From Thermosulfurimonas dismutans (lineage in GTDB: Bacteria; Desulfobacterota; Thermodesulfobacteria; Thermodesulfobacteriales; Thermodesulfobacteriaceae): DNA of 32,000 bases. Of this stretch, positions 736-24,953 are shown piece by piece. A program made the translations under genes and the position numbers. The notes under the pieces are model-generated. The model did not search any database and was not told where the DNA came from. It worked only from the letters and a program-made list of their open reading frames with translations. Each line of letters begins with the position of its first letter. Positions within the stretch are counted from its first letter, which is position 1. The stretch is from positions 90,001 through 122,000 of the forward strand of contig NZ_LWLG01000003.1 of NCBI RefSeq assembly GCF_001652585.1, in the 5' to 3' direction.

Positions 736-805
736 TTTTGAGATTTTCTTTTGTCGAATTTTTGGCTATTATACTCGATAGTCTGAGGAAAAGAAGGGGG
801 GGATC
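736..805. promoter_or_regulatory. Divergent ftsE/pilT intergenic region with the pilT Shine-Dalgarno sequence
   Basis: 70-nt AT-rich gap between divergent genes. It has -10-like hexamers TATTAT (767-772) and TATACT (770-775) but no well-spaced -35. A strong SD, AAGGGGGGG (794-802), lies 3 nt before the ATG at 806. Confidence 0.3.
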
Positions 806-1897
806 ATGGCTAAAATCGACGCCTTCCTGAAACTGATGGTGGAGACCGGAGCCTCAGATCTTCATCTTTCGGCTGGTAATCCCCCCATTCTTAGGGTGCA
901 TGGAGATCTCCAAAGGGTTAAATACAAAGCCCTTGAAAATGAAGAACTTAAGTCCATGCTCTATGAAATCACTCCTGAAGAAAAGATCAAAGAGTTTGAG
1001 GAAAGCGGGGATGTGGATTTTGGTTTCGAGATTCCGGGACTAGCCCGTTTTAGGGTGAATTTCTTCCAGCAGCACCGAGGTGTAGGGGCAGTCTTCCGAT
1101 TGATTCCGAGTCAGGTTAGGACAGTGGAGGAACTGGGACTTCCTCCCATTTTGAACAAGTTGGCCCTCCTCCCCAAAGGTCTAGTTTTGGTAACCGGACC
1201 TACAGGTTCTGGAAAATCTACTACTTTGGCGGCTATGATAGACTATGCCAACCGTATGCGCAAAGATCATATTATTACCATTGAAGATCCTATCGAATTT
1301 GTGCACAAGCCCAAAAACTGTTTGGTCAACCAGAGAGAAGTGGGGGTGCACACCCGTTCTTTTGCTGCGGCTCTGAGGGCGGCCTTGCGTGAGGATCCAG
1401 ATATCATCCTGGTAGGTGAAATGCGGGATCTCGAAACCATTCAGCTTGCTCTAGAGGCCGCTCTTACCGGACATTTAGTAATGTCAACCTTGCATACCAT
1501 CTCCGCCTCCCAGACCGTGGACCGAATTATCGAGATCTTTCCCCATGACCAGCAACCACAAATTCGTTCCTCTCTGGCAGAGTCTCTTAGAGCTGTAATT
1601 TCACAGACGATGTTCAAACGCATAGATCGGCCTGGACGGGTGGTGGCCCTAGAGATCATGATTGCTACCCCGGCGGTGCGCAACCTCATCCGGGAAGGCA
1701 AGACCTATCAGATACCTTCCATTATCCAGACCGGCCGAAAATACGGTATGGTTTCTTTGGACGATGCTATTATGGAATATCTCCAAAAAGGCATCATTGC
1801 TCCGGAAGAAGCCTTAAACAAGGCCCTAGATAAGAGCAGATTCATTCCTTTTGTTAAAGAGGCTAAACTAGCCGACTTTACGGAGATCCCCGGATGA
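806..1897 (+). CDS. pilT: Type IV pilus retraction (twitching motility) ATPase PilT
   Basis: 363-aa ORF with Walker A GPTGSGKST and Walker B/Asp box IILVGEMRD. It carries the PilT-diagnostic AIRNLIRE-type motif as PAVRNLIREGK. Strong SD upstream. Confidence 0.9.
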   Translation: MAKIDAFLKLMVETGASDLHLSAGNPPILRVHGDLQRVKYKALENEELKSMLYEITPEEKIKEFEESGDVDFGFEIPGLARFRVNFFQQHRGVGAVFRLIPSQVRTVEELGLPPILNKLALLPKGLVLVTGPTGSGKSTTLAAMIDYANRMRKDHIITIEDPIEFVHKPKNCLVNQREVGVHTRSFAAALRAALREDPDIILVGEMRDLETIQLALEAALTGHLVMSTLHTISASQTVDRIIEIFPHDQQPQIRSSLAESLRAVISQTMFKRIDRPGRVVALEIMIATPAVRNLIREGKTYQIPSIIQTGRKYGMVSLDDAIMEYLQKGIIAPEEALNKALDKSRFIPFVKEAKLADFTEIPG

Positions 1898-3075
1898 TCG
1901 GAGAAATAGACATTAGTGAGTTAATAGCTGCTCTGTCTAATCATCGTGAAAGGATTACCGATATCCTTTTTATCGTTGGTCGCCCCTTGCAGGTGGCGGC
2001 TGATGGGAGATTACATGAAGTAAAATTGCCCGATTGGCCTATTGATAGGCTAACTCCTCTTCAAACCGAGACCATAGCCTTCAATCTTATGCGAAAAAAT
2101 CCCAAACTCTTTCAGGATCTGGTGCGAACCGGCTCTGCGGATTTTTCCTATCGTCTTCCGGATGGGACCCGCTTCAGGGTCAATGTCTATTCCCGTCAAC
2201 AAAGCTACAACATTGTGATGCGTAAACTTTCGGCCAAGGTACCTTCTATTGCTGAACTGGGGCTTCCGTCGGCCTTCTATCGTATTGCTCAAGAGAGAAA
2301 CGGTATCATTTTGGTTACTGGTGCTACCGGTCAGGGAAAGACCACCTCTCTGGCGGCTATTTTGAATGAGATAAACGAGAAAGAGGCCGTCCACATAATT
2401 ACTCTCGAGGATCCGGTGGAATACATCCACCTCCCAAAAAAAGCCACCTTCAGTCAACGGGAGCTCGGTACAGACTTTGATACCTTTGCGCATGGGTTAC
2501 GGGCGGCGTTAAGACAGGCCCCGCAGGTGATCCTGGTGGGAGAAATCCGCGACCGAGAGACCATGGAAATAGCTCTTATGGCTGCCGAGACTGGGCATCT
2601 GGTCTTCTCCACGCTCCATACCGTAGGGGCCGGAAATACCATTAATCGTATCCTGGGGTTTTTTACGATCGAAGAAGAACACCAGATTCGTTACAGGCTG
2701 GCCGATACTTTGCGTTGGATCGTTGGGCAAAAGTTGGTCCCTAAGGTAGGTGGAGGCCGAATAGCTGTTTTCGATATTCTTTATAACAATATTCGAGCCA
2801 AGGAAACTATTCTTAAGGGTGAAGAGGAAGGACGGACCTTTTATGACATTATGCGTCAAGGTAGTCCCTATCATATGCAAACCTTTGATCAACATCTTAT
2901 AGAACTATATCGAAAAGGCTTGATTACCGAAGAAACAGCCTTAGCTTACTGCGTGAGAAGAGATATCGTAGGGCGTGAGATAGATCGCATCAAGGCCTCT
3001 AGGGGTGAAAAGACCTCAGACATTGAAGGTTTGGAGCTTGACCTTGAGGGAGAAGGTCGGTGGCGGAGAAGATAG
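1894..3075 (+). CDS. Second PilT/PilU-family hexameric secretion ATPase (divergent paralog)
   Basis: 393-aa ORF with an ATGA overlap onto pilT. It has Walker A GATGQGKTT, ILVGEIRD and the His box STLHT. The AIRNLIRE motif is not conserved (NNIRAKETILKG). It has a charged C-terminal tail. Confidence 0.8.
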   Translation: MIGEIDISELIAALSNHRERITDILFIVGRPLQVAADGRLHEVKLPDWPIDRLTPLQTETIAFNLMRKNPKLFQDLVRTGSADFSYRLPDGTRFRVNVYSRQQSYNIVMRKLSAKVPSIAELGLPSAFYRIAQERNGIILVTGATGQGKTTSLAAILNEINEKEAVHIITLEDPVEYIHLPKKATFSQRELGTDFDTFAHGLRAALRQAPQVILVGEIRDRETMEIALMAAETGHLVFSTLHTVGAGNTINRILGFFTIEEEHQIRYRLADTLRWIVGQKLVPKVGGGRIAVFDILYNNIRAKETILKGEEEGRTFYDIMRQGSPYHMQTFDQHLIELYRKGLITEETALAYCVRRDIVGREIDRIKASRGEKTSDIEGLELDLEGEGRWRRR

Positions 3076-3698
3076 AGTTTGTCTGTGAGGGGTGCGGTCG
3101 GAAATATAGGCTAAGAGGTTCTCCAGAGGAACTCCGGGAAGACCTCCTTTTCTGTCCCGAGTGTGGGGGGAAGTTAACCCTTTACGGAGAACAAACTCTA
3201 GGATCATCTTCCTCCCAAGGGATCTCCCCAACTCCTCGGAAAGACTTTCTTGAAGATCTTCTTATTACCGGGCCGGTGGCTCTAATTTACTGGACACTGC
3301 CAGCTAGTAAGGATCGGGTAGAAGAGGTGCTCCGAAATGAAGGCTACGTGATTAAGGACTTTCAGGCTCAGGAAGACCTGAAGTACTGGCTCAGACTCTT
3401 TATCCCTGAAGTGGTGGTCTTTGCTACGGAAGATGAGGGGCGGGTTGCCGATTTTGAGGCCATGCTTTTGGATCTCCCCATGGAAGATTACCGGAGGATC
3501 TTTCGGATAAAGATTGCCTCCAGATACCGAACCCTCGAGCCCACCGAAGTCTTCTTGGCAGGGGTGCATCTGGTCTGTAACCCCCGAGACCTTGAGAAGT
3601 TTGAAGAGATTTACCACAAGGCTCGTGATTATTGGAAAGTACTTTACGCCCCATACTTTAAAGCCTATGAGAGTTTGGAGGAGGGAAGAATCAAATGA
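3060..3698 (+). CDS. Uncharacterised protein: N-terminal CXXC...CXXC zinc ribbon plus C-terminal alpha/beta (degenerate receiver-like) domain
   Basis: 212-aa ORF with a GTG start preceded by GGGAGAAGG. It overlaps the PilT-like gene by 16 nt and galU by 4 nt (ATGA). Cys pairs C9/C12 and C32/C35 (nt 3084-3164) resemble MJ0042-type zinc ribbons. A Ser-rich linker follows, then an alternating beta/alpha pattern (ALIYW, YVIKDF, EVVVFATED, FRIKIAS, LVCNP). I recognise no family. Confidence 0.6.
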   Translation: MAEKIEFVCEGCGRKYRLRGSPEELREDLLFCPECGGKLTLYGEQTLGSSSSQGISPTPRKDFLEDLLITGPVALIYWTLPASKDRVEEVLRNEGYVIKDFQAQEDLKYWLRLFIPEVVVFATEDEGRVADFEAMLLDLPMEDYRRIFRIKIASRYRTLEPTEVFLAGVHLVCNPRDLEKFEEIYHKARDYWKVLYAPYFKAYESLEEGRIK

Positions 3699-4558
3699 TT
3701 AAAAAGGCAGTTCTTCCAGTAGCTGGACTTGGGACTAGAATGCTTCCGGCCAGTAAGGCTATTCCCAAAGAGATGCTCACCATTTTAGATAAACCAGCCA
3801 TTCAGTATATCGTAGAAGAGGCTCAAAGCTCCGGGATAGAAGATTTTATTTTCGTGATTTCTAGGGGAAAAGAGGCCATCTTGGATCATTTCGATCTTTC
3901 TCCGGAACTTGAAATGGAGCTTGAGAACCGGGGAAAGAAGGCGTTGCTTGAAGAGATAAAAAAGGTTTCTGGATTGGTTAAGAATCTTTCGGCCGTAAGA
4001 CAAAAGAAGGCTTTGGGGCTGGGACATGCTATTTTGGTGGCTGCCCCCCTAGTGGGTAAGGAGCCCTTTGCGGTGCTCCTTGGAGATGATATCGTGGACT
4101 CGGAAAAACCTTGTCTCAAGCAACTCATAGAAGTAGCCGAGAGGATCAAAGCCCCGGTGATAGCGGTGGAACGGGTACCTAAAGAGCAGGTTTCGCTCTA
4201 CGGAATTATTTCCGGTGAAAAAGTGGAAGATGGTCTCTGGAGAATGACTGGAGTATTAGAAAAACCCCGTCCAGAAGAAGCGCCTTCGGATCTGGCCATC
4301 ATCGGCCGTTATATCTTTTTTCCCGAGATCTTTGAATATCTGGAGAAGACCCCTCCCGGAAACGGGGGCGAGATCCAGCTTACGGACGCTATCTCTAAGA
4401 TGATAACCGATGGCCACGAGATCTATGCCTTTGAATTTGAAGGCACCCGTTATGATGCCGGCAACAAGTTGGGCTTGGTAAAGGCCACCCTGAACTTTGC
4501 CCTGAAACACCCTCAGATAGGCCCTCATTTAAGAGAATATATCAAGAGTTTATTATAG
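3695..4558 (+). CDS. galU: UTP--glucose-1-phosphate uridylyltransferase
   Basis: 287-aa ORF. The N-terminal signature AVLPVAGLGTRMLPASKAIPKEML is typical of GalU, and the length is right. Confidence 0.9.
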   Translation: MIKKAVLPVAGLGTRMLPASKAIPKEMLTILDKPAIQYIVEEAQSSGIEDFIFVISRGKEAILDHFDLSPELEMELENRGKKALLEEIKKVSGLVKNLSAVRQKKALGLGHAILVAAPLVGKEPFAVLLGDDIVDSEKPCLKQLIEVAERIKAPVIAVERVPKEQVSLYGIISGEKVEDGLWRMTGVLEKPRPEEAPSDLAIIGRYIFFPEIFEYLEKTPPGNGGEIQLTDAISKMITDGHEIYAFEFEGTRYDAGNKLGLVKATLNFALKHPQIGPHLREYIKSLL

Positions 4559-4572
4559 CTCCTGTTTGAGTC

Positions 4573-6891
4573 GTGTATTTTTATGAAATTGTTCTGCCTC
4601 TGCCTTTGTACACACCTTTAATTTACGCCTCCTCTAAAGAAATTCCCTGCGGGGTTAGGGTGTTAGTCCCGGTAAGGGGGCGACGTTGTGTAGGGTTGGT
4701 GTTCAGGAGATGGCCAGAGGGAGAGTCCCCCGATTTTCAGGTCCGTGAGATCGAGGAGATAGTTGATGATGAACCCTTATTGCCCGCTGATCTCCTCGAA
4801 TTTTTGGCCTGGTGCTGGGAATACTATCTTCATCCCCCGGGGGAGGTGGTTAGAAGTGCCTTTCCGCCGGGTTTCTTTCGGGAAATCAAGAAAAAGTACG
4901 TCCTTACGGCCGAGGGGAAACGGCTTCTTTCCGAGGGTGCGCTTCCAGGTTGGGCCGAGCATCTCAAAAGGCCTCGCACCTTGAAAAACCTCATAGCCAG
5001 GGCTGGAAGAGATCTCAGTCGGGAGCTTGACGTGCTGGTGGAAAGGGGCCTGGTTAAAGAGACCGAGGACCTTTCAGGGCTTAAGCCCCCGTTTGAGCCT
5101 TGGCTGGAGTACCTCGCAGAGGAGGTTTCCTCCCCCATAGAGGAGTTTCTAAAAGAGAAAGGCCGCTGGCCTAAAAGGTTCCTTGAAGAAAGTTTTGGAA
5201 AAGAGCCTGTTAAGAAGCTCGTCTCTTCGGGCCGGGTCCGGCTGATTGAGCTTCCCCGGATGCGTAGGGGAGTAGTTCTTGATTCCGGAGAGCCTCCGGT
5301 CCCCAATCTGGAGCAAACGAAGGCCGTGGAGGCTATAAAAGAGGCCTTGGATAAAGGATTTGAGGTCTTTTTGCTTCATGGAATTACGGGGAGCGGAAAA
5401 ACCCTGGTCTATCTTTACGCCGCGGAGGCGGCTCTTCGCCGGGGAAAATCCGTTTTGATTCTGGTGCCTGAAATCGCCTTGACTCCTTATGTAGAGACCC
5501 ATTTTGTATCCAGATTCGGCACACAAGTGGCCATTCTCCACAGTGCTCTCCCACCCCGAGCCCGGGCTGCGGAATGGTTTCGGGTGGCCCGAGGGGAGGC
5601 TCGCGTGGTGGTGGGGACCCGTTCGGCCCTCTTTGCTCCTTTGAGGGATCTGGGGCTCATCGTAGTGGACGAGGAACACGAAAGCTCTTACAAGCAAATG
5701 GAGGGGTTGCGCTATCAGGCGAGGGATATGGCCCTTATGCGTGGAAAGCTTGCGGAGGCTTCGGTAGTGTTGGGATCCGCCACGCCTAGCGTTAAGAGCT
5801 ACTATTTGGCTAAAACCGGAAAGTACCGCCTACTAACCCTTACCCAAAGACCGAAGGGCAAAACTCTCCCGGAAATAGAGGTGGTAGGGCTCAAACGCCC
5901 CGGAGAACTTTTCACCGAAAGGCTTCTTTCAGCTATAAATGAAACCCTCTCCCAAGGTCAACAGGTTCTTCTCTTTTTGAATCGTAGGGGCTACGCCCCG
6001 ATAGTCTTTTGCAAGGATTGTGGGGAGCCTCTTATGTGTCCCAACTGTACTTTGAGTCTCACCTATTATCGTTCGCAAGGCCGACTTCTCTGCCATCACT
6101 GTGGATTTGAAAGGCCGGCTTTTCCGCTTTGTCCTCACTGTGAAGGAAAGGAGTTTCGGCTGGTGGGTTTCGGCACCGAAAGGGTGGAGGCCGAGATTAT
6201 GAGAATCTTTCCTTCATCTAGGGTGGCTCGCCTGGATCGGGAGACCGTGACTTCCGAAAGGAAACTTCTTGAGCTCATCCGAAGACTCAAGAGGGGAGAG
6301 ATAGACATTCTGGTGGGCACACAGATGGTAGCCCAGGGACACGATCTCCCGGGAGTGAGCTTGGTAGGGGTGCTCTGGGCTGAAGGGGGACTTCATTTTC
6401 CCGATTTCCGGGCTGCGGAGCGGACTTTCCAGCTATTGGTACAGGTGGCCGGTCGGGCCGGGAGGGGCCGGGTTCCTGGACGGGTCATCCTTCAGACCCG
6501 CATGCGGGATCATTATGCTATAAGTGCGGCTTTGAAACAGGACTATGAGGCTTTTTTTGAAGAGGATCTTAAAAGACGTAAGACCTTGCGTTTTCCGCCC
6601 TTTTCGCGTTTGGCGCTCTTGATCTTTTCGGCCCTTAAATCCGAGAAAGCCGAGTCTGCAGCCCATAAAGCCAGAGAATTCCTTTCAGCCTTTAAAAATA
6701 CTGAGGTTTTAGGGCCGGTGCCGGCACCGCTTTTCCGCCTTTCGGCCCGCTATCGCTGGCAGCTCCTTCTTAAAGCCGAGACTGTAGGAGGGCTCGATAG
6801 GGCTCTCAAGGCTTTCTGGCAGGCAAGGGATAGCCTTATACCCGCTGGAGTCAGGCTTACCCTTGATAGAGATCCCGAAGAACTGTTATAA
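4573..6891 (+). CDS. priA: Primosomal replication-restart helicase PriA (protein N')
   Basis: 772-aa ORF with a GTG start. Walker A is GITGSGKT and the DEAH-type box is VVDEEHE. The PriA-specific Cys-rich zinc insert is CKDCGEPLMCPNC...CHHCG...CPHCEG. The N-terminal MYFYEIVLPLPL resembles the PriA 3'-DNA-binding domain. Confidence 0.9.
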   Translation: MYFYEIVLPLPLYTPLIYASSKEIPCGVRVLVPVRGRRCVGLVFRRWPEGESPDFQVREIEEIVDDEPLLPADLLEFLAWCWEYYLHPPGEVVRSAFPPGFFREIKKKYVLTAEGKRLLSEGALPGWAEHLKRPRTLKNLIARAGRDLSRELDVLVERGLVKETEDLSGLKPPFEPWLEYLAEEVSSPIEEFLKEKGRWPKRFLEESFGKEPVKKLVSSGRVRLIELPRMRRGVVLDSGEPPVPNLEQTKAVEAIKEALDKGFEVFLLHGITGSGKTLVYLYAAEAALRRGKSVLILVPEIALTPYVETHFVSRFGTQVAILHSALPPRARAAEWFRVARGEARVVVGTRSALFAPLRDLGLIVVDEEHESSYKQMEGLRYQARDMALMRGKLAEASVVLGSATPSVKSYYLAKTGKYRLLTLTQRPKGKTLPEIEVVGLKRPGELFTERLLSAINETLSQGQQVLLFLNRRGYAPIVFCKDCGEPLMCPNCTLSLTYYRSQGRLLCHHCGFERPAFPLCPHCEGKEFRLVGFGTERVEAEIMRIFPSSRVARLDRETVTSERKLLELIRRLKRGEIDILVGTQMVAQGHDLPGVSLVGVLWAEGGLHFPDFRAAERTFQLLVQVAGRAGRGRVPGRVILQTRMRDHYAISAALKQDYEAFFEEDLKRRKTLRFPPFSRLALLIFSALKSEKAESAAHKAREFLSAFKNTEVLGPVPAPLFRLSARYRWQLLLKAETVGGLDRALKAFWQARDSLIPAGVRLTLDRDPEELL

Positions 6892-6900
6892 TTTTCTGCC

Positions 6901-8541
6901 ATGGCAACTCGTTTCAATCCCCAGAGGATAAACTGGGCGGCGAGGGAAAAATCTTCGCTTGCCAATTTTGCTCTCAAACCGGAAGAACTTGAGGCCTATT
7001 TGGACGAGTACGTAGTAGGACAGAGAGAGGCCAAGGGTATTCTTTCCACCAAGATCTGCACACATTTCCACCGGGTAAAGTACCTCCTCGAGAGGGGAGA
7101 GCGTTTCGACGAGGTGGGCTTTGTCAAGAACAACATTATCATCATTGGTCCTACTGGTGTGGGGAAGACCTTTATCGTAAAACTCATTGCCCGCAAGATC
7201 GGAGTGCCTTTTGTTAAGGGAGATGCCACTAAGTTCAGCGAGACCGGTTATGTTGGCGGGGACGTGGAAGACCTTATTCGAGATCTGGTCCAGGAGGCGG
7301 ATGGCAATTTGGAAAAGGCCCGTTTTGGGATCGTCTATCTGGATGAGGTGGACAAGATCGCTTCCAGCGGAAATGTGTTTGGTCCGGATGTTTCACGCAC
7401 CGGTGTACAGAGGGCCCTGTTGAAACCTCTTGAGGAGACCGAGGTCGAACTTCGTGTCCCTCATGATCCCATCAGTCAGATGGAGGCCATCGAATATTAT
7501 CGTCGTACTGGCCGTCGTAAACGGAATTCTATTAATACCCGTTATATCCTCTTTATTGCTAGCGGCGCCTTTAACGGTCTTGAGGAGATCATCCGAAAGC
7601 GACTTCGTAAACAGAAACTCGGTTTCCTTTCAGAACTTGAAGGCCGGGAAGAGGTCTCTATAAATTATCTGCGTTTTGTGACGCCGGAAGACCTTATAAC
7701 CTATGGGTTCGAGTCCGAATTCGTAGGGCGTTTCCCGGTGATAGCGGTTTTTGATCCTTTAGAGGAGAAAGACTTTTTCGAGATCTTAGCCAATCCCAAT
7801 AGTGTAATCGTGGTGAGCAAGAAGCGCGATTTTAAGGCCTATGGTATAGATTTGGCTTTTACGGATGAGGCCTTAAGGGAGTTAGCCCGAAGAGCAGCGC
7901 GAGAGAACACCGGGGCCAGGGCCCTTTCCCGAGTCCTTGAAAGGGTCCTCATTCCCTTTGAAAAAAGTCTTCCCAGCCTGGGAGTCTCATTTTTGGGGGT
8001 AAGCCGGGAGATAGTGCTTGAGCCTGAAAAAGTCCTTTCTGAGATGAAGCTATCCCCAGAAAATCCACGCTGGCGAGTCTGGTATGAGAAGGCCCTTAAG
8101 GATGAAGAAGGGCGCACGCTAACTTTCCTTGAGACCCGCAAAAAGAGCTTTTTTGAAAATTACAGGTTGCCCTTTACTCCGGCCAAACTTGAGCTGGCGC
8201 TGCTCCTGCACCGAAAGGAAGATCTGGATCTTCAACAGGCCTTGGAAGAACTTCTTATGTTATGGCGTCAGATTCGGAGTTTTGAGAAGAGTTTCGAGAG
8301 ACGTTCGAGGCTTAAGGTTTATTTTTCAGAGGGGGCCCGGGACCTTATCCTTTCCGAGGTCATTAAAAAAGACGAAGGGGTGTACGCCTTCTGTGATCGG
8401 ATATTGAGCGTACTTGAATACGGGCTTAAGCTTGTAGGAGACAAAACCGGAAAGACGATTTTTGAACTTCCGGAGGAGGCGGTGAGGTCTCCCGAAGAAT
8501 ACCTCAATCAACTGGTGCGTTCCTCTTACCATCTGGGTTAG
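6901..8541 (+). CDS. ClpX-family AAA+ unfoldase paralog lacking the N-terminal zinc-binding domain, with an extra C-terminal helical domain of about 160 aa
   Basis: 546-aa ORF that is collinear with the ClpX AAA+ module. Matching elements are YVVGQ, Walker A GPTGVGKT, pore-1 loop GYVG (7246-7257), Walker B IVYLDEVDK, an LGF tripeptide at the IGF-loop position (7618-7626) and sensor-2 GARAL. There is no C4 zinc finger at the N-terminus. Residues from about 381 to 546 (nt about 8041-8541) have no ClpX counterpart. Confidence 0.8.
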   Translation: MATRFNPQRINWAAREKSSLANFALKPEELEAYLDEYVVGQREAKGILSTKICTHFHRVKYLLERGERFDEVGFVKNNIIIIGPTGVGKTFIVKLIARKIGVPFVKGDATKFSETGYVGGDVEDLIRDLVQEADGNLEKARFGIVYLDEVDKIASSGNVFGPDVSRTGVQRALLKPLEETEVELRVPHDPISQMEAIEYYRRTGRRKRNSINTRYILFIASGAFNGLEEIIRKRLRKQKLGFLSELEGREEVSINYLRFVTPEDLITYGFESEFVGRFPVIAVFDPLEEKDFFEILANPNSVIVVSKKRDFKAYGIDLAFTDEALRELARRAARENTGARALSRVLERVLIPFEKSLPSLGVSFLGVSREIVLEPEKVLSEMKLSPENPRWRVWYEKALKDEEGRTLTFLETRKKSFFENYRLPFTPAKLELALLLHRKEDLDLQQALEELLMLWRQIRSFEKSFERRSRLKVYFSEGARDLILSEVIKKDEGVYAFCDRILSVLEYGLKLVGDKTGKTIFELPEEAVRSPEEYLNQLVRSSYHLG

Positions 8542-8543
8542 TC

Positions 8544-8915
8544 ATGGCTAAAACTCCCCTGGTTTATCTAGCATTATCGGAAAGTGTAGCCCAAAAAGTA
8601 AAGGAGATTCTCAAAGGTTTTAACTGCCGGGTGGAAAGCGTGCCTGATGGTGAAGCCCTTATAAACCTTTCGCGGGAAACATTGCCCGATCTTATAATAA
8701 TAGAAAAAGAGATACCTAAACTCGACGGTTACGCAGCTGTTTTGCTTTTAAAAAACGATGAGAAGACTGCGGAAATCCCGGTGGTAGGGATTTGTAAATG
8801 TCTTTCGGACATTGAAGCCGAAAAGGCCCGGGATGCTGGGTGTGACGATTATGTGTGTTATCCTTTTGAAAAGGAAGAACTGGAAAAAATCCTAGAAAAA
8901 TTTTTGGTGAGGTAA
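8544..8915 (+). CDS. Single-domain response-regulator receiver with degenerate active site (pseudo-receiver)
   Basis: 123-aa ORF starting 2 nt after the AAA+ stop. It is CheY-like in length and in its beta/alpha pattern. Aligned to CheY, D12/D13 become L/S, D57 becomes E54 (gaa, 8703-8705), T87 becomes C and K109 becomes Y (DYVCYPF). Confidence 0.75.
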   Translation: MAKTPLVYLALSESVAQKVKEILKGFNCRVESVPDGEALINLSRETLPDLIIIEKEIPKLDGYAAVLLLKNDEKTAEIPVVGICKCLSDIEAEKARDAGCDDYVCYPFEKEELEKILEKFLVR

Positions 8916-8918
8916 GGC

Positions 8919-10103
8919 ATGATAGGCATTTCCAAACTCTATTGTGGCACAGTTGAGGCTTCGGACCCTTTACGTTACGGCCGAAGAGCTAAAGATTTAC
9001 CTTCCCATCTTCTCCAGTTTTCGGCGGACAAGCGGCCGGTAGTGGTCTGGAACGTGACCAAGAGATGTAATCTCCGGTGCGTTCACTGTTACGCCTCCGC
9101 GGATCCTTCCCCTCATCCGGATGAACTTACCACGGAAGAGGGTATGGCCCTCCTTGAGGATCTGGCGCAGTTCGGATGCCCGGTGGTTCTCTTTTCAGGC
9201 GGTGAGCCTCTTATGCGTCCGGACATCCTAGATCTGATTCATAAGGCGGTGACTCTCGGCCTGCGGGCGGTGGTTTCTACCAATGGAGTCCTTATAGATC
9301 GGGCTCTGGCCCGTGAACTAAAGAAGTTCGGTCTTTCTTATGTAGGCATCAGTATGGACGGCTTACGAGAGGTTCACGACCGTTTTCGGGGAGTAAAAGG
9401 GGCCTTCGATAAGGCAATGGAGGCGGTAGAGAACTGCAAGGCCGAAGGCATCAAGGTGGGCCTGCGGTTTACTATCAACAAACTCAACGCCCAGGAGATT
9501 CCGGGTATCTTTGACTTGGTTGAAGAGTATCAGATCCCGCGGATCTGTTTCTACCATCTGGTCTACGCCGGTCGCGGATCAAAATTGATGGAACAGGATC
9601 TCTCTCACGAGGAGACCCGGCGCTGGGTGGATTACATCATTGATCGTACTAAAGAACTCCACGAGAAGGGGCTCAAGGTGGAGGTCCTCACGGTGGACAA
9701 CCATGCTGACGGACCCTACCTCTACCTCCGTATGAAGCGGGAGGGCAACCCCCGGGCCGAGGAGGTCTATGAACTGCTGAAAATGAACGGGGGCAACAAT
9801 TCCGGGGTGGGGATAGGCTGTGTTTCCTGGGATGGTTCGGTGCATGCGGACCAGTTCTGGCGGCACTATTCCTTTGGAAACGTCCGGGAGCGGCCCTTTA
9901 GCGAGATCTGGATGGATACCTCAGACCCCCTCATGGCCAAGCTCAAAGAGAAAAAAAAGCATGTAAAGGGGCGGTGTGCCAAGTGCCGCTTCCTTGAGGT
10001 CTGTGCTGGAAATTTCAGGGTGCGGGCGGAGGCTGCTACCGGGGATGTTTGGGCCCCGGATCCCGCCTGCTATCTTACGGATGAAGAGATTGGTATAGCT
10101 TAA
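8919..10103 (+). CDS. Radical SAM enzyme with C-terminal SPASM/twitch-like Cys cluster, NirJ/AhbC/AhbD-like
   Basis: 394-aa ORF with the CX3CX2C motif CNLRCVHCY (9066-9089). The N-terminal ISKLYCG...DPLRYGR resembles the NirJ/Ahb heme-pathway radical SAM family as I recall it. C-terminal cysteines are GCVSWDG...[10 protein letters not shown]...DPAC. Radical SAM membership is confident; the subfamily is not. Confidence 0.8.
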
Positions 10104-10120
10104 GAAAGGAGGAAGAAGGG

Positions 10121-10723
10121 ATGAGGAAAATAGAAAGAGCCCTTATCAGTGTGACAGATAAGACCGGGGTGGCGGAGTTTGCGAAGGCCCTGCACGAGAT
10201 GGGCGTCGAGATCGTTTCCACCGGGGGCACGGCCCGCGTAATAAGAGAGGCCGGGGTTCCGGTAACGGATGTCTCAGAGGTTACCGGTTTCCCGGAGATG
10301 CTTGACGGTCGAGTAAAGACTCTGCATCCCAAAATCCACGGAGGGCTTCTTTTCATAAGGGACAAAGAGGAGCACGTACGCCAGATTCAGGAACACGGCA
10401 TTAAGCCCATAGACCTCGTGGCCGTAAACCTTTACGCCTTTGAGAAGACGGTGGCCTCCGGTGCGGATCTTGAGACCGCCATCGAGAACATTGATATCGG
10501 CGGCCCCACTCTTCTTCGGGCCGCGGCCAAAAACTTCAAATATGTGACGGTAATTGTGGACCCCGCAGATTACGAACGGGTACTTTCCGAGATGAGAGCC
10601 AACAACGGGGCCACTACGCTTAAGACCCGGTTTGACTTGGCCCGCAAGGTCTTTGAGACTACCTTTCGCTACGACCGGGCTATTGCGGAATACCTTGCGC
10701 AGGTCTCCCCTCCCGAGGAATAG
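10121..10723 (+). CDS. purH: IMP cyclohydrolase (MGS-like N-terminal domain of PurH only; AICAR formyltransferase domain absent)
   Basis: 200-aa ORF with a strong SD (GAAAGGAGGAAG). [11 protein letters not shown]...STGGTA...[21 protein letters not shown] is the classic PurH N-terminus. The ORF ends at the domain boundary, and its TAG stop directly abuts the aroD ATG. Confidence 0.85.
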
Positions 10724-11407
10724 ATGATATGTGTTTCCATTGCGGAGCCTACGGTCGAGGCCGTCCTCAGGGCCCTCGCGCAGGCGCAGGGGCAGGCCGA
10801 TCTCTTTGAGATAAGGCTGGATGCCCTTGAGAAGCCCGCGGTAGCTCCCTTCCTTTCCGTTCGGAAAAAACCCCTTCTTTTCACTTTCCGGGCGGAAGAG
10901 GAAGGGGGTTTTCGTCCTGTTCCTCTTTCCGAGCGTCTGACGTGGCTTCGCGAGGCCGCCTCTGCCGGGGCGGACTATGTGGACCTCGAACTTTCCGCCG
11001 GCCCCGAGGCTATCCGGGAACTTCTCAAAGTCTCCAGGACCACGAAGCTCATTCTTTCGTATCATAATTTCGAAAAAACTCCGAAAGAAGACTACTTAAA
11101 AGACAAAATTAAAGAAATGGTTGAAATGGGGGCAGCCATCGGAAAGGTGGTCTGCATGGCGAAGGAGGTGGAGGACGGGTTGAGGCTTCTCGGGCTTATT
11201 CCCTGGGCCAGGGAGTGTTTTGATATACCGCTTATGGCCTTTGCCATGGGGCCGCTCGGGAAATGGACTCGGGTGGTCTCGGTGCTCTTGGGAGCCCCTT
11301 TTGCCTATGCGGCTGCAAGACCCGGTGGTGCGACCGCCCCTGGGCAGCTTACGGCGGAGGAATTGCGTAAGGCGCTTGCTCTTCTTTCTGAGGAGAAGAT
11401 TTCATGA
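10724..11407 (+). CDS. aroD: 3-dehydroquinate dehydratase, type I
   Basis: 227-aa ORF with typical AroD type I motifs: ICVSI..., LFEIRLD, DYVDLEL, ILSYHNFEKTP. It sits in an aro gene context. Confidence 0.85.
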   Translation: MICVSIAEPTVEAVLRALAQAQGQADLFEIRLDALEKPAVAPFLSVRKKPLLFTFRAEEEGGFRPVPLSERLTWLREAASAGADYVDLELSAGPEAIRELLKVSRTTKLILSYHNFEKTPKEDYLKDKIKEMVEMGAAIGKVVCMAKEVEDGLRLLGLIPWARECFDIPLMAFAMGPLGKWTRVVSVLLGAPFAYAAARPGGATAPGQLTAEELRKALALLSEEKIS

Positions 11408-12216
11408 AGGTCTTCGGGGTTATAGGCTATCCAGTGTCTCACTCCCTCTCGCCAGTGATGCACAACGCGGCTTTAAGGCATCTCGGGATCCCAGCGGTTT
11501 ACGGGGCCTTTGAGGTCGGCCCCGAGGATCTTCCGGCCGCCATCTCCGGAGTCCGGGCCCTCGGGATAGGTGGACTTTCGGTAACTGTCCCCCACAAGGA
11601 GGCCGTAATGGCCTGGCTTGACGAGATAGACCCGGTGGCCGAAAGGATCGGGGCGGTTAACACCGTAGTGAACCGGGAGGGATGTCTTTTCGGAACCAAC
11701 ACCGACTGGCTCGGGGTCAAACGTAGTTTGCTAGAGGCCGGGGTGGAACTTTCTGGGAAGAAGGCCGTGGTAGTGGGGGCTGGGGGAGCAGCGCGGGCGG
11801 TGGTCTATGCCCTCTGCGAGCTAGGGGCCGAGGTTGAGATTTACAACCGCACGTTTCCGAAGGCCGAAAAACTCGCGCGGGATTTCGGGGGAAGAGCCTA
11901 CGCCCTTTCCGAAATTATTAAGGCTTCTGGGGAAATCATCATTCAGACCACGAGTGTGGGGTTAAAGAGCTGGAAGAGTCCGGTGCCGAAGGAGGTCTTT
12001 GAAAATTTTCAGGTGGCTATGGACATCGTGTATGTGCCGCTCAAGACCAGGTTTCTTTCCGAAGCGGAGGCTGCTGGCTGCCAAACCATTGACGGCCTCA
12101 AGATGCTGGTTTATCAGGGAGCAGAGCAATTTAAACTTTTTACGGGGTACGAACCTCCGGTAGAATTGATGTATCAGGAAGCTCTAAGGAGTCTTCATGG
12201 AAAAGAAAGAGATTAA
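11404..12216 (+). CDS. aroE: Shikimate 5-dehydrogenase
   Basis: 270-aa ORF with an ATGA overlap onto aroD. It has GVIGYPVSHSLSPVMHNAA, the NTD motif (GTNTDWLG) and the NADP-binding VVGAGGAARAV. Confidence 0.9.
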   Translation: MKVFGVIGYPVSHSLSPVMHNAALRHLGIPAVYGAFEVGPEDLPAAISGVRALGIGGLSVTVPHKEAVMAWLDEIDPVAERIGAVNTVVNREGCLFGTNTDWLGVKRSLLEAGVELSGKKAVVVGAGGAARAVVYALCELGAEVEIYNRTFPKAEKLARDFGGRAYALSEIIKASGEIIIQTTSVGLKSWKSPVPKEVFENFQVAMDIVYVPLKTRFLSEAEAAGCQTIDGLKMLVYQGAEQFKLFTGYEPPVELMYQEALRSLHGKERD

Positions 12217-13468
12217 GCCCCTTAATAGCTCGATTGCAATAAAACTAAGGCTTCCAGGGTCAAAGAGCCTCACACAGAGGGCCCTTCTCTGTGCGGCTCT
12301 GGCTAAAGGAGAGTCGGTTATAAAAAATCCCCTAATTAGTGAAGATACGGAGCTTCTTTCCGAAGCCCTGCGGACTTCGGGTTGCGGGCTGGAACGCAGG
12401 GACGGGTCTTTTGTGGTTTCTGGAGTCTCTGGAGAACCAGTCTTTTCCGGGGAGGAGATCTTTTTCGGAAACAACGGCACCGGTTCCAGATTTTTTCTGG
12501 CCTATGCCGCGCTTTCCCGGAATGGGGAGGCTGTCCTTTATGGGAAACCACGGCTCCATGAAAGGCCCATGGGGCCCCTGATTACGGCTCTCAGGAGTTT
12601 GGGGGCAAAAGTAGAGTGTCTCTCCAGAGAAGGGTATCTTCCGGCAAGGGTCTCTCCCGGAAGGCTTTCAGGAGGTCGGATTACGCTCCCGGCCACTCAA
12701 AGTAGCCAGTATATCTCGGCTCTCCTTCTCATCGGTCCTTATCTTCCCGGAGGGCTTGAACTGGAGATCGAAGGACAGATGGTCTCCACCCCGTACGTGG
12801 AGCTCACCCTTTCGGTGATGTCGGCCTTTGGGGCGGAGGTGGAGAAGATTTCCGGTGGTTTCAGGGTTAGTGAGGGCGGCTATCGGGCCCGGATCTATGA
12901 GGTGGAGGGGGATGCCTCAAGTGCCTCTTATTTTCTTGTTCTTCCGGCCCTTCTTGGAGGCTCGGTGGAGGTGGAAAATCTTTCCCCTGATTCCCCCCAG
13001 GCCGACACGCTGTTTTTCAAGATACTTTCAGAGAGCGGGGGCCGGGTCGAAAGGGCAGGGCAGGGTGTAAAGGTGGAGTTCTCCACACCTCCCCGGGCCT
13101 TTGAGGTTGATTTGCGAGAGGCTCCGGATCTCTTTCCCACCCTCTGTGTGCTAGCTGCGGTGGCCGAAGGCAAAAGTCGGATCTACGGGGCTCCGCATCT
13201 GAGATACAAGGAATGCGATCGCATAGCCGCCATGGCCACTGAACTTTCAAAGACCGGAGTCAAGGTGAGAGAACTTCCCGATGGTATAGAAATAGAAGGC
13301 GGCAGAGAACTTCACGGAGCCGAGATTGAGACCTATGATGACCATCGCATCGCCATGTCTTTTGCGGTTCTCGGGCTTAAAGTCCCGGGCATGGTCATTC
13401 GCAATCCCGCCTGTGTGGCCAAGTCTTTTCCGGAATTCTGGGAATATCTGCGTAAGGTTTACGCCTGA
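12197..13468 (+). CDS. aroA: 3-phosphoshikimate 1-carboxyvinyltransferase (EPSP synthase)
   Basis: 423-aa ORF with LPGSKSLTQRALLCAAL, NNGTGSRF and a DHRIAMSFAV C-terminal motif. It overlaps aroE by 20 nt. Confidence 0.92.
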   Translation: MEKKEIKPLNSSIAIKLRLPGSKSLTQRALLCAALAKGESVIKNPLISEDTELLSEALRTSGCGLERRDGSFVVSGVSGEPVFSGEEIFFGNNGTGSRFFLAYAALSRNGEAVLYGKPRLHERPMGPLITALRSLGAKVECLSREGYLPARVSPGRLSGGRITLPATQSSQYISALLLIGPYLPGGLELEIEGQMVSTPYVELTLSVMSAFGAEVEKISGGFRVSEGGYRARIYEVEGDASSASYFLVLPALLGGSVEVENLSPDSPQADTLFFKILSESGGRVERAGQGVKVEFSTPPRAFEVDLREAPDLFPTLCVLAAVAEGKSRIYGAPHLRYKECDRIAAMATELSKTGVKVRELPDGIEIEGGRELHGAEIETYDDHRIAMSFAVLGLKVPGMVIRNPACVAKSFPEFWEYLRKVYA

Positions 13469-14041
13469 TTAGATCCAATATTCGGGATATCTTCGACTAG
13501 CCGGTATATTGTTAACTAATACGGCAATGATTAGCATGATAAGGGCCCCCAGGCCAGCCGGTATAATAGCGTACAGGTAACCCAAATTGTGAATCTTATT
13601 ACTACCTATGACCGCGATCAGGGCCGTGGCACCACCCGGAGGATGTAAGGTCCTCGTAGCATGCATAATAGCAATGGCTGTGGAAACCGCTAGAGCGGCT
13701 GCCAGCCACATCTCAGAATGGAATAGTTTATAACAGGTGACTCCCACGAGGGCCGATATGATATGCCCCCCAACTAGATTTCTCGGCTGAGCCAATGGAC
13801 TTTTGATGGCACCGTATATCAAAACCGCAGAGGCTCCAAAAGAGCCTATGACCATGACCAGGTCCGTGTTTGTGAGCAGGTTGTAATGGATGTAAGATAC
13901 GGCTGCGATCCCCAGAAACGCCCCGATCCATGACCAAATGATTTCGGAAAGGCTTACCCGGGGCGGGCTTTTAGTTACACCTTTCATTTTTGATAGATAT
14001 TCGGATAAATAACTGTGTCTATGTTGTTTGATTTTTTCCAT
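13469..14041 (-). CDS. HPP-family integral membrane protein
   Basis: 190-aa ORF with a GTG start (an SD-like AAGGT lies 8 nt upstream). It has four to five hydrophobic segments and the eponymous motif TLHPPGGATALIAV. Its stop codon is directly adjacent (0 nt) to the convergent aroA stop. Confidence 0.8.
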   Translation of the reverse strand: MEKIKQHRHSYLSEYLSKMKGVTKSPPRVSLSEIIWSWIGAFLGIAAVSYIHYNLLTNTDLVMVIGSFGASAVLIYGAIKSPLAQPRNLVGGHIISALVGVTCYKLFHSEMWLAAALAVSTAIAIMHATRTLHPPGGATALIAVIGSNKIHNLGYLYAIIPAGLGALIMLIIAVLVNNIPASRRYPEYWI

Positions 14042-14043
14042 CC

Positions 14044-14072
14044 TTTGGATACCTTGGAACTTTTTGCTATAA
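14044..14072 (+). promoter_or_regulatory. Putative sigma-70 promoter with extended -10, facing aroK
   Basis: The -35-like TTGGAT (14044-14049) is followed by a 17-nt spacer, an extended -10 TG (14064-14065) and a perfect TATAAT (14067-14072). This would give a leader of about 100 nt before the aroK ATG. Confidence 0.4.
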
Positions 14073-14176
14073 TGATCTAATGCTTCTTTGGTGAGTTAGC
14101 AAGTTAAAATTTATAATTTTGTGGTTAAAAATTTGTAAACTGTGTTTTAACTGGCTTTAATTTATGAGGATATAAG

Positions 14177-14692
14177 ATGTGCTCCAGAATCATATTGATC
14201 GGTTTTCGAGCCACGGGTAAGACCACCGTGGGTAAGTTGTTGGCCAAAAGGTTGGGCTACCCTTTTGTGGATCTGGATGAGTATATTGAAAGGAAACTCG
14301 GTAAAAGCATCCGGGAGGTGGTGGAGGAAGGGGGCTGGCAGGCCTTCCGAGCGGAAGAAAGGAAGGCCATGCGGGAGTTTGCAGAAAAGGGAGACCTGGT
14401 GCTTTCGCTCGGGGGCGGGGCGGTGATGCACGAGGCCGAAATGGAGGCCCTGAAGGAAGAGGCTTTGGTGGTCTGGCTCTCGGCCCCGGTTGAGACCATT
14501 ATTGAACGTCTTTCCCGCGATCCGAAAACTGCCACCCAGCGCCCGTCCTTGACGGAAAAATCCCTAGAGGAGGAGGTGAGGGAACTCCTTTCCCGCCGGG
14601 AACCGCTCTACGCCCGCTTTGCGGATCTTCGGATCTCCTCGGAGGGCTTATCCCCGGAGGAGATCGTCCGGAAGATTTTGGAAGTCCTTTGA
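14177..14692 (+). CDS. aroK: Shikimate kinase
   Basis: 171-aa ORF with the SD GAGGA 6 nt upstream. The P-loop is GFRATGKTTVGK, followed by FVDLDEYIE and GGGAV motifs. Confidence 0.9.
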   Translation: MCSRIILIGFRATGKTTVGKLLAKRLGYPFVDLDEYIERKLGKSIREVVEEGGWQAFRAEERKAMREFAEKGDLVLSLGGGAVMHEAEMEALKEEALVVWLSAPVETIIERLSRDPKTATQRPSLTEKSLEEEVRELLSRREPLYARFADLRISSEGLSPEEIVRKILEVL

Positions 14693-14766
14693 GTTCAACT
14701 TTTGGTAAACGAACCTTGAGTTGCTTACTGAGGCGCTTGACCCGAGCTTCCCACACAACGTCGTTT

Positions 14767-16383
14767 TTATCTTAAAACCTCGACAAAGCGGAAGGTCCGG
14801 ACATCGAATAGCCCCCGATCGGTGAGCTTGAGCTCGGGGATCACCGGAAGGGCCATGAAGGAGAGGGTCATGAAGGGGGCCGTAAGGCGGGAACCCAAGA
14901 CCTCTTTGCTAAAGCGATCAATTTCCTCGTATTTCCGGGCCACCTCGAAGGCCTCCTCCGGGCTCATGAGACCGGCCACCGGCAGCGGCAGCACCATTTC
15001 GGCCTCCTCGCTTACCGCCGCAAGGCCGCCCCGGTTCTCTATTACCAGGTTTACGGCTTTGGCGATAAGCTCGTCGCTAACCCCTACGGCCACGAGGTTG
15101 TGGGAGTCATGCGCCACCGAGGAGGCGATGGCCCCTTTCTTCAGACCGAAACCCTTTACGAAGGCCACCGCCGGTGGGGCCTCTTGATACCGATTGATGA
15201 TGGCTATTTTCAGGATGTCGTGTTCGGGATCGGCCTCGAAGATCCGGCTGCGGGTCCTGAAGCTTGTCTCCCGGGTAAAAAGTTCGCCATCAAGGGCCTC
15301 TATGACCCTTATTTCCCTGAAATCGGAAACAAATTCAAAGTCTTGGAGGTTTTTGGGTCTGGCCTCAAACCGGTTGGGGATGGGGCAGGGCGGAGGGGCC
15401 ATCCTCACCTCGCCCTTCTCGAAGACTACCTGGCCGTTGATGACGGTTCTCACGACCTCAAAGTCTGTGAGATCCCTCACCTCGATGAAGTCGGCTGGCT
15501 CTCCCTCTTTCAGGGTTCCCACTTTAAGGCCATAATGCCTTACGGGGTTAAGGCAGGCGACTTTAAGGACTTCAAATAAATCATGTCCTTCCTTTACGGC
15601 CCTTGCCACCAGGGAATTTATATGACCCCTGAGGAGATCGTCGGGGTGGCTGTCGTCGGTGCAGAACATGAGACTTTCGGGATATTCGGAAATAAGCGGG
15701 GAGAGGGTTTCGAAGTTTCTGGCTGCCGAGCCCTCTCTTATGAGGATTTTCATACCCTTTTCTATCTTCTCCCGGGCCTCCTCATAGCTTGAAGCCTCGT
15801 GATCCGTAGAGATGCCGGCCTCGATGTAGTGGGTAAGGGCCTCTCCGCGAAGCCCCGGGGCGTGTCCATCCACGGGTTTTCCGTATTTTTGGGCCAGCGC
15901 TATCTTGGCAAGTAGTTCCTCATCACCAGCAAGGACCCCGGGAAAGTTCATCACCTCGCTGAGGAAGCCTATCTCCGGAAGTTTCAGAAGTTCCTCCACT
16001 TCTGCCGGGCCCAGGCGGGCCCCGCTGGTCTCAAAGGGAGTAGCGGGCACACAGGAAGGGGCCCCGAAACAGAACTTAAAAGGCACCCTCCGAGCGTCCT
16101 CCAGCATGAAGCGGACGCCCTCAAGACCAAGAACATTTGCGATCTCGTGGGGATCGGAAACCACGGCCACCGTCCCGTGTCTTACCGCAAGTCTTGCAAA
16201 CTGTGAGGGCACCATCAGGGAGCTTTCGATGTGAACGTGGGCGTCCACGAATCCGGGAAGGATGTAAGTCTGACAGGGTTCGTTTATCCTCCGGATGGCT
16301 TTTATGACTGGCCCCTCCACCTCTATTTCAGAAGGGATGATGGTCCGCTCCTCGGGGTTTACCAGGTTGGCCCTGAACTTCAT
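14767..16383 (-). CDS. ade: Adenine deaminase
   Basis: 538-aa ORF from the amidohydrolase superfamily. GFVDAHVHIESSLMVP...VSDPHEIANV is characteristic of adenine deaminase, and the length is appropriate. Confidence 0.88.
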   Translation of the reverse strand: MKFRANLVNPEERTIIPSEIEVEGPVIKAIRRINEPCQTYILPGFVDAHVHIESSLMVPSQFARLAVRHGTVAVVSDPHEIANVLGLEGVRFMLEDARRVPFKFCFGAPSCVPATPFETSGARLGPAEVEELLKLPEIGFLSEVMNFPGVLAGDEELLAKIALAQKYGKPVDGHAPGLRGEALTHYIEAGISTDHEASSYEEAREKIEKGMKILIREGSAARNFETLSPLISEYPESLMFCTDDSHPDDLLRGHINSLVARAVKEGHDLFEVLKVACLNPVRHYGLKVGTLKEGEPADFIEVRDLTDFEVVRTVINGQVVFEKGEVRMAPPPCPIPNRFEARPKNLQDFEFVSDFREIRVIEALDGELFTRETSFRTRSRIFEADPEHDILKIAIINRYQEAPPAVAFVKGFGLKKGAIASSVAHDSHNLVAVGVSDELIAKAVNLVIENRGGLAAVSEEAEMVLPLPVAGLMSPEEAFEVARKYEEIDRFSKEVLGSRLTAPFMTLSFMALPVIPELKLTDRGLFDVRTFRFVEVLR

Positions 16384-24950: not shown

Positions 24951-24953
24951 ATC

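Follow-up and report, generated by a model that had tools for sequence, protein, structure and literature searches.

A ClpX paralog with an optional pseudo-receiver precedes siroheme-dependent heme biosynthesis genes in Thermodesulfobacteriota

Our analysis concerns three consecutive forward-strand genes of Thermosulfurimonas dismutans (phylum Thermodesulfobacteriota, class Thermodesulfobacteria) that lie in a 32,000-nucleotide (nt) stretch of contig NZ_LWLG01000003.1, hereafter referred to as the window. The first gene (positions 6901–8541) is an open reading frame (ORF) of 546 amino acids (aa) coding for an AAA+ ATPase that resembles ClpX but has no zinc-binding domain. The second (8544–8915) codes for a 123-aa pseudo-receiver (REC), and the third, ahbC (8919–10103), for a 394-aa radical SAM/SPASM enzyme. 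As can be read from the sequence, the stop codon of the AAA+ gene (TAG, 8539–8541) and the REC start codon (ATG, 8544) are separated by TC, and the REC stop codon (TAA, 8913–8915) and the ahbC start codon (ATG, 8919) by GGC. The coordinates of the three ORFs and the gaps of 2 and 3 nt listed in a first-pass annotation of this DNA were thus confirmed exactly. Its description of the products as a ClpX paralog that lacks the zinc-binding domain and has a new C-terminal domain, a receiver that cannot be phosphorylated, and a radical SAM/SPASM protein was borne out, too. A ClpX paralog gene followed, optionally, by a pseudo-receiver gene and located in front of hemB or of genes for siroheme-dependent heme synthesis constitutes a module that recurs within one phylum.

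The ClpX-type AAA+ module occupies residues ~25–372 of the ATPase. Two ClpX equivalog models, NF003745 (306.9 bits, cutoff 359, model positions 56–401 of 418) and TIGR00382 (286.4 bits, cutoff 370.75), are the best-scoring ones in NCBIfam, though both scores are below the cutoff, and no NCBIfam model that the protein passes was found. Residues 26–371 align with solved ClpX chains (E 6e-68). Like canonical ClpX, with which it aligns over ~340 residues, the protein has a Walker A motif, a GYVG pore-1 loop, a Walker B motif, an Arg finger and sensor II (GPTGVGKT, TGYVGGD, VYLDEVDK, EFVGRFP and TGARAL in the window protein) as well as an IGF-type loop. Walker A does not vary among 74 family members, and all but one of them (73/74) have GYVG. 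Walker B, the Arg finger and sensor II are conserved in every sequence, with only conservative substitutions in flanking positions. The LGF tripeptide of the window protein (residues 240–242) aligns onto the IGF/LGF ClpP-docking loop of solved ClpX chains, and an [ILM]GF tripeptide is found in 74/74 family sequences. Judging from these motifs, the AAA+ protein is predicted to be an active unfoldase that retains the means of docking on ClpP.

The protein also departs from canonical ClpX in several ways. The N-terminal C4 zinc-binding domain of ClpX is absent, as the hidden Markov model (HMM) alignment begins past it and residues 1–25 contain no Cys. At the position of the RKH loop, there is an insertion of ~11 residues together with a very basic stretch (YYRRTGRRKRNS). 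The C-terminus is extended by ~170 aa (helical hairpins, then a second lid domain of degenerate form), and the gene is located beside neither clpP nor tig. In mtClpX, the mitochondrial insertion precedes the Walker A region of the AAA+ domain (PMC12970495); since the positions differ, equivalence of the RKH-region insertion with this element is ruled out. A K[I/V/M]CTH[F/Y] motif (window positions 7051–7068, residues 51–56) is present in all 74 sequences at the place where ClpX has a Tyr-Asn-His stretch, and Cys498 of the C-terminal lid-like domain (8392–8394) is near-invariant in the family. One of the related loci, L039, contains a fragment of canonical ClpX (558.6 bits against the cutoff of 359) 5.7 kb away from the paralog. 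The paralog thus exists alongside canonical ClpX and does not take its place.

Residues ~373–546 have no sequence match in the PDB. In the AlphaFold2 (AF2) model of the C-terminal part, obtained with a 44-sequence alignment (predicted local distance difference test score, pLDDT, 93), helical hairpins are followed by an alpha/beta unit. The only Foldseek matches of the last ~75 residues in the PDB are ClpX small (lid) domains, with a root-mean-square deviation of 2.6–3.0 Å, a probability of ~1.0 and weak E-values of 0.13–1. When the C-terminal region was aligned with the protein's own small domain by hhalign (probability 67%, E 5e-5), 'GFKVYFSEEARD...EGVYAF' was paired with 'GIDLAFTDEALR...TGARAL'. 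We consider, with moderate confidence, that the C-terminal end may be modelled as a degenerate duplicate of the lid domain in which the sensor-II Arg has been lost. A library-wide search with the C-terminal domain retrieved 181 representatives at 50% identity, all of them 516–609-aa proteins or apparent fragments; no other architecture was found among these 181, and the domain is confined to the family of this ATPase. At the opposite end, most members outside Thermodesulfobacteria have a Cys-free N-terminal extension of ~50–70 aa, whose consensus resembles 'IPSQKELEKEISDYLSKKYG..V.VV'. It was seen in relatives P0090–P0120 and L081–L089 and is absent from the window protein.

The product of the third gene contains the domains PF04055 (Radical_SAM, 113 bits) and PF13186 (SPASM, 29 bits), and its CxxxCxxC motif is CNLRCVHC (residues 50–57). 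The AhbC model TIGR04546 matches it with 726.8 bits (cutoff 650). The NirJ1 model (548.7 bits, cutoff 650), the AhbD model (232 bits, cutoff 500) and the NirJ model remain below their own cutoffs. Since TIGR04546 alone passes, assignment to NirJ or to another SPASM maturase is ruled out. By its sequence, the enzyme is a bona fide AhbC, the predicted 12,18-didecarboxysiroheme deacetylase of the alternative, siroheme-dependent route to heme.

Relatives of the AAA+ protein number at least 592 in a scan of one genome per species. The best 80 loci (47–65% identity) were analyzed, and the named relatives among them are nearly all Thermodesulfobacteriota or 'Deltaproteobacteria'. ORFs were called at each locus and neighbouring genes were classed by BLAST against reference proteins that had been checked in NCBIfam (HemB, NF006762, 505.6 bits, cutoff 297; AhbD, TIGR04545, 560 bits, cutoff 500; AhbA, NF040708, 164 bits, cutoff 140). 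Downstream counts refer to the 70 loci that have 1.5 kb or more of sequence 3′ of the AAA+ gene and to genes on the same strand that start within 1 kb. At 53 of these 70 loci, the gene directly 3′ of the AAA+ gene is a heme gene, namely ahbC (36 loci) or hemB (17 loci). A J-domain (DnaJ/CbpA-like) gene occupies this position at 9 loci, and nothing recognisable does so at the other 8. The AhbC orthologues encoded directly 3′ of the AAA+ gene at the 36 loci are 67–88% identical. In many cases the two genes overlap or no more than 25 nt lie between them, an arrangement that favours co-transcription. Further downstream, ahbC is followed by hemB and/or ahbD at 18 related loci, 5 of which have ahbA too; the order AAA-ahbC-hemB-ahbD is found at 13 loci, with ahbA next at 5 of those. 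At Desulfobulbales-type loci, hemB alone follows the ATPase gene. The heme linkage of the AAA+ gene spans several classes of Thermodesulfobacteriota, sulfur-cycling bacteria included. The adjacency is therefore not limited to this genome or its close relatives, a restriction that the first-pass annotation would have taken as a refutation. Co-occurrence across phyla, which it had asked about, narrows to co-occurrence across several classes, with nearly all named relatives belonging to one phylum.

The genes flanking the trio in the window (galU and priA upstream; a purH fragment and aroD/aroE/aroA downstream) are adjacent only at three Thermodesulfobacteria loci. Elsewhere, the upstream neighbours are what we take to be an NtrC-type regulator gene with a histidine kinase gene, hflX, purL/Q, an adenine deaminase gene or guaA/dnaE, most of these names being read off the sequences. 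Since the flanks are conserved in one class only and the adjacency of the AAA+ gene to heme genes is wider, this internal control supports selection for the linkage. In a neighbour-joining tree of the AAA+ proteins, contexts follow clades and the heme linkage spans the deepest splits. The J-domain genes belong to one clade (L018, L028, L032–L034, L036, L040, L041, L057, L066 and L073), in which the downstream gene codes for a DnaJ/CbpA-like protein of ~325 aa without a zinc finger, at a gap of −4 to 26 nt. Other recurrent neighbours (miaB, hisB, sod, ttcA, an acyl-CoA dehydrogenase gene, the NtrC-type regulator/histidine kinase pair, hflX, purL/Q and the adenine deaminase gene) are unrelated to heme; most names of these families are presumed from reading representative sequences.

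These contexts can also be read in another way. The AAA+ protein could be a second ClpX for general proteostasis with an altered substrate range, its adjacency to ahb and hemB genes being an old inherited gene order without heme-specific function. This explanation, which we hold to be somewhat unlikely, is favoured by the whole clade in which a J-domain chaperone gene stands directly 3′ (9/70), by the loci with no recognisable partner (8/70), by contexts that track the clades of the tree and by the retention of all generic unfoldase and ClpP-docking motifs; the rest of the window consists of housekeeping genes. However, the adjacency outlasts many rearrangements that swap the upstream neighbours as well as the first heme gene (ahbC or hemB), and the other neighbours seen in the window are not adjacent outside one class. 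In addition, wherever the dedicated pseudo-receiver gene occurs, the ATPase gene lies on one side of it and a heme gene on the other.

The pseudo-receiver matches PF00072 with 48.5 bits (cutoff 30.2). Its AF2 model (pLDDT 90) has the (beta-alpha)5 fold, with template modelling (TM) scores of 0.85–0.92 to DivK, RpaA and other receivers. Residues were mapped onto a CheY reference sequence; in the window protein, Asp57 is replaced by Glu, the acidic pair by Leu-Ser, Thr87 by Cys and Lys109 by Tyr. A search with the single sequence yielded 16 close relatives only, and the wider family was collected by a profile search with receivers, which returned more than 100 clusters of 121–126-aa single-domain proteins at E ≤ 1e-34. 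Asp57 is replaced in 120/120 family members (by Arg in 101, Glu in 16, His in 2 and Lys in 1), the Thr87 position is Cys in 114/120, and Lys109 gives way to Glu, Tyr or Asp in 118/120. The charge-swapped pair Arg57 and Glu109 is the commonest form. Judged by these residues, REC is predicted to be incapable of phosphorylation, and the family is best described as a uniform, selected pseudo-receiver and not as a decaying response regulator. The Cys at the Thr87 position of the window protein is Cys84 (8793–8795); Cys100 is near-invariant in the REC family.

A REC gene follows the AAA+ gene at 7 of the 70 genome loci, each time ahead of a heme gene. The latter is ahbC at L001, L002 and L052 which, like the window, belong to Thermodesulfobacteria, and hemB at L004, L006, L007 and L009; the two REC-bearing groups are basal clades of the AAA+ tree. 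Seven REC members sampled across the profile list were all found in AAA-REC-HemB trios, with AAA+ proteins of 583–660 aa and differing flanking genes, and the REC and hemB genes overlap by 4 nt in all seven contigs. In 14/14 contexts examined, the REC gene thus has the AAA+ gene before it and a heme gene after it. REC is a dedicated partner in the module and, in two basal clades, would be an obligate one.

The trio of AAA+, REC and radical SAM genes that the first-pass annotation proposed to look for elsewhere does exist in other Thermodesulfobacteria, but in the remaining REC-bearing lineages the third gene is hemB. This distribution bears on the idea that AAA+, REC and AhbC form one physical complex in which the unfoldase acts on AhbC. 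Such a complex would fit the order AAA-REC-AhbC kept in Thermodesulfobacteria (window, L001, L002, L052) and the rank of AhbC as the most frequent immediate neighbour (36/70 loci). Conversely, hemB and not ahbC is third in all other REC-bearing lineages examined (4 genome loci and 7/7 contigs), and it stands alone after the ATPase gene at Desulfobulbales-type loci. Since hemB replaces ahbC in REC-bearing lineages, AhbC is not an invariant partner and the idea of AhbC as the client is weakened; we regard the three-protein complex as highly improbable. The suggestion that the three genes are a functional unit tied to heme or cofactor maturation survives in its connection with heme (a heme gene after the AAA+ gene at 53/70 loci) and fails in treating AhbC as the specific partner. 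An AhbC that elsewhere always sits with ahb genes had been named as evidence against such a unit; in other genomes AhbC indeed sits with hemB, ahbD and ahbA, but the ClpX-like gene is in the same cluster.

The trio lies inside an unbroken run of 12 forward-strand genes (806–13468), in the order of two PilT/T2SSE-like ATPase genes, an ORF without an assigned family, galU, priA, the trio, the purH fragment, aroD, aroE and aroA. The median intergenic gap across the run is 0, the extremes being −20 and +17 nt; the distance from the end of priA to the start of the AAA+ gene is 9 nt, and that from the end of ahbC to the start of the purH fragment is 17 nt. All 12 genes are packed equally tightly, which rules out close spacing as the mark of a special trio; the spacing of 2–3 nt, in which the first-pass annotation had seen a sign of co-translation, is not distinctive. 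The three genes are grouped by their conservation in other genomes, and spacing by itself singles out none of them.

A promoter-like site (TTGATA, an 18-nt spacer and TATAAT, with an extended −10 TG) is located on the forward strand at 6863–6892. It matches the consensus at 11/12 positions and is the best of 9 sigma-70-like consensus matches in 600–14800. The site overlaps the 3′ end of priA, its −10 element stops 9 nt upstream of the AAA+ ATG, and the AAA+ start codon has no Shine-Dalgarno sequence. Similar promoter-like sites are found at an equal distance from the AAA+ start in L052 and L006. The site may mark the start of a transcription unit, although it is a consensus match only and not evidence of function. 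The position of this candidate promoter together with the missing Shine-Dalgarno sequence suggests that the AAA+ mRNA would be leaderless or have a very short leader. No terminator-like site was seen 3′ of ahbC in the window; transcription therefore probably runs on into the purH and aro genes.

Several other features of the window were recorded. The gene at 10121–10723 (forward strand, 200 aa) is a purH cut down to the IMP-cyclohydrolase (MGS-like) domain: in the AICARFT_IMPCHas model, the profile match ends at position 59/311, and no AICAR formyltransferase domain is encoded at this place. As a short purH gene is also found 3′ of ahbC in L001, L002 and L052, purH appears to be split in Thermodesulfobacteria. 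The two T2SSE/PilT-type secretion ATPase genes at the head of the run (806–3075, forward strand) are arranged in tandem with a 4-nt overlap. Two forward-strand ORFs located in operon-like runs, 3060–3698 (212 aa) and 18258–18914 (218 aa), have no Pfam match at E ≤ 1e-4. At 23001–26000, GC content falls to 0.41–0.43, compared with ~0.50–0.57 around it; this region holds a histidine kinase gene (23517–24950), an ORF without a Pfam match (24954–25694) and the start of tilS.

A ClpX-type unfoldase tied to heme biosynthesis is known from mitochondria. Mitochondrial ClpX activates ALA synthase (ALAS) by partial unfolding (PMC7077987) and controls heme-enzyme turnover (PMC8361296), while CLPX and the adaptor POLDIP2 bring about heme-induced degradation of ALAS (bioRxiv 10.1101/2024.07.05.602318). 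The mitochondrial protein (Mcx1/CLPX) thus resembles the AAA+ protein both in its tie to heme biosynthesis and in having an accessory protein that possibly conveys feedback. It is, however, a weaker sequence match (E ~4e-53) than bacterial ClpX. Its link to heme is functional, whereas that of the AAA+ protein is deduced from gene order. It acts on ALAS, whereas the pathway of the module is formed by siroheme-dependent Ahb proteins and HemB, without ALAS. The accessory protein of the module, with its receiver fold, bears no relation to POLDIP2.

The CpdR protein of Caulobacter, a single-domain receiver of ~120 aa, is a ClpXP adaptor (PMC11519897; bioRxiv 10.1101/2023.01.07.523045). CpdR and RssB of enterobacteria are receiver adaptors that work with a ClpX-type ATPase, as the pseudo-receiver is a candidate to do here; both are phosphorylatable and phospho-switched, in contrast to the REC family, in which Asp57 is missing from all 120 members. 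CpdR works through the N-domain of ClpX, which the AAA+ protein is without. The score of RssB against the pseudo-receiver is 26.7 bits, no closer than those of many other regulators. Neither the mitochondrial ClpX precedent nor the CpdR one is a family-level match to the module. With regard to the known ahb cluster (AhbA/B, AhbC and AhbD), the likeness extends to related loci where ahbC-hemB-ahbD-ahbA follow the ATPase gene; in the window, ahbC alone is linked.

We see about an even chance that the trio is the local form of a conserved Thermodesulfobacteriota module in which a dedicated ClpX-type unfoldase heads a siroheme-dependent heme gene cluster and sets the flux through the pathway. The hexameric ATPase would unfold or remodel one or more heme-pathway enzymes and would most likely pass them to ClpP via the retained [I/L/M]GF loops, the flux thereby being set at the protein level. 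The pseudo-receiver could serve the ATPase as an adaptor or regulate it in a ligand-gated manner. Because the adaptor-binding zinc N-domain is missing from the AAA+ protein, the candidate site for its docking is the domain gained at the C-terminus, with its helical and lid-like parts. The conserved Cys and His residues of the AAA+ protein could, together with the REC cysteines, form a redox, metal or heme-ligand site. We infer a physical interaction of the AAA+ protein with REC, coupling to ClpP, the substrate and the direction of regulation; the pair would act on heme-pathway proteins, most likely by regulated ClpP-dependent degradation or by remodelling of a pathway enzyme.

Several observations weigh against this reading of the module as a dedicated regulator of heme synthesis. 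No clpP gene was found in the window or near any locus in a BLAST search with a ClpP query, and hemB, ahbD and ahbA were not found in the 32-kb window by tblastn and blastp. About a quarter of the loci have no heme gene adjoining the AAA+ gene, and one clade has the J-domain gene instead; such non-heme contexts fit a general chaperone role as well. Contexts are clade-structured, so conservation could in part be due to vertical inheritance. The REC gene overlaps hemB more consistently than it adjoins the AAA+ gene, and REC could therefore be the partner of the enzyme, not of the ATPase. Finally, most members of the AAA+ family are without an adjacent receiver gene; the ATPase can therefore work without a REC gene nearby.

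The lack of a nearby clpP gene also bears on the possibility that the ATPase is a ClpP-independent chaperone or maturase that partly unfolds a pathway enzyme for cofactor loading or a change in assembly, with REC as a specificity factor. Candidate actions would be [4Fe-4S] loading into AhbC and AhbD, or an effect on the oligomeric state of porphobilinogen synthase. There is a precedent in mitochondrial ClpX, which activates ALAS by partial unfolding that allows loading of pyridoxal phosphate (PMC7077987). The neighbouring genes code for cofactor-dependent enzymes, and the additional lid-like domain at the C-terminus offers a possible place for holding a client. Yet a ClpP-docking tripeptide that is invariant in 74 sequences is hard to explain without ClpP binding, and we judge a ClpP-independent role to be improbable.

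Returning to a dedicated, ClpP-coupled regulator, a more specific and decidedly tentative version can be proposed from the REC residues. The pseudo-receiver might be a small-molecule sensor whose pocket has been rebuilt (Arg/Glu57, Cys87 and Glu/Tyr109) so as to bind heme itself or a polyanionic intermediate of the tetrapyrrole route, and thereby gate a dedicated ClpX-paralog/ClpP protease by which a heme-pathway enzyme is degraded or remodelled. If this were true, the siroheme-dependent pathway would contain a self-contained feedback circuit, a bacterial counterpart, independently reached, of the mitochondrial CLPX-POLDIP2-ALAS control.

In public databases, the proteins carry generic names such as 'AAA family ATPase', 'ClpX', 'response regulator', 'DivK' and 'CheY-like'. 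In the literature, we found no description of the Ahb pathway with an AAA+ ATPase or a receiver protein and no paper that mentions both AhbC and ClpX. Nor was an account found of ahb/hemB clusters that contain a ClpX paralog or a receiver, in a search that left most subscription journals outside its coverage, so that a prior mention is possible. The remark of the first-pass annotation that it knew of no described system combining such an ATPase, a pseudo-receiver and a radical SAM enzyme agrees with this search, in which none was found. What is new is the architecture of this ClpX-family unfoldase, which comes with an accessory protein of the receiver type, and the association of the two with this pathway.

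Sulfate reducers, sulfur disproportionators and many archaea make heme by the siroheme-dependent pathway and, to our knowledge, the control of flux through this pathway has not been worked out. The pair of an unfoldase and a pseudo-receiver at the head of an ahb/hemB cluster is a testable candidate for post-translational control of this pathway. The ATPase represents a new ClpX architecture, in which the N-terminal adaptor domain has been lost and a helical region and an apparently duplicated lid domain have been gained at the C-terminus. The pseudo-receivers of the module would make up a large and uniform family in which the active-site pocket has been rebuilt, and ATPase and REC proteins that are now labelled generically could be given a family-specific name. 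The gene arrangement suggests a previously undescribed control of bacterial heme production at the protein level which, if it exists, would mean that heme synthesis is tied to ClpX outside mitochondria as well.

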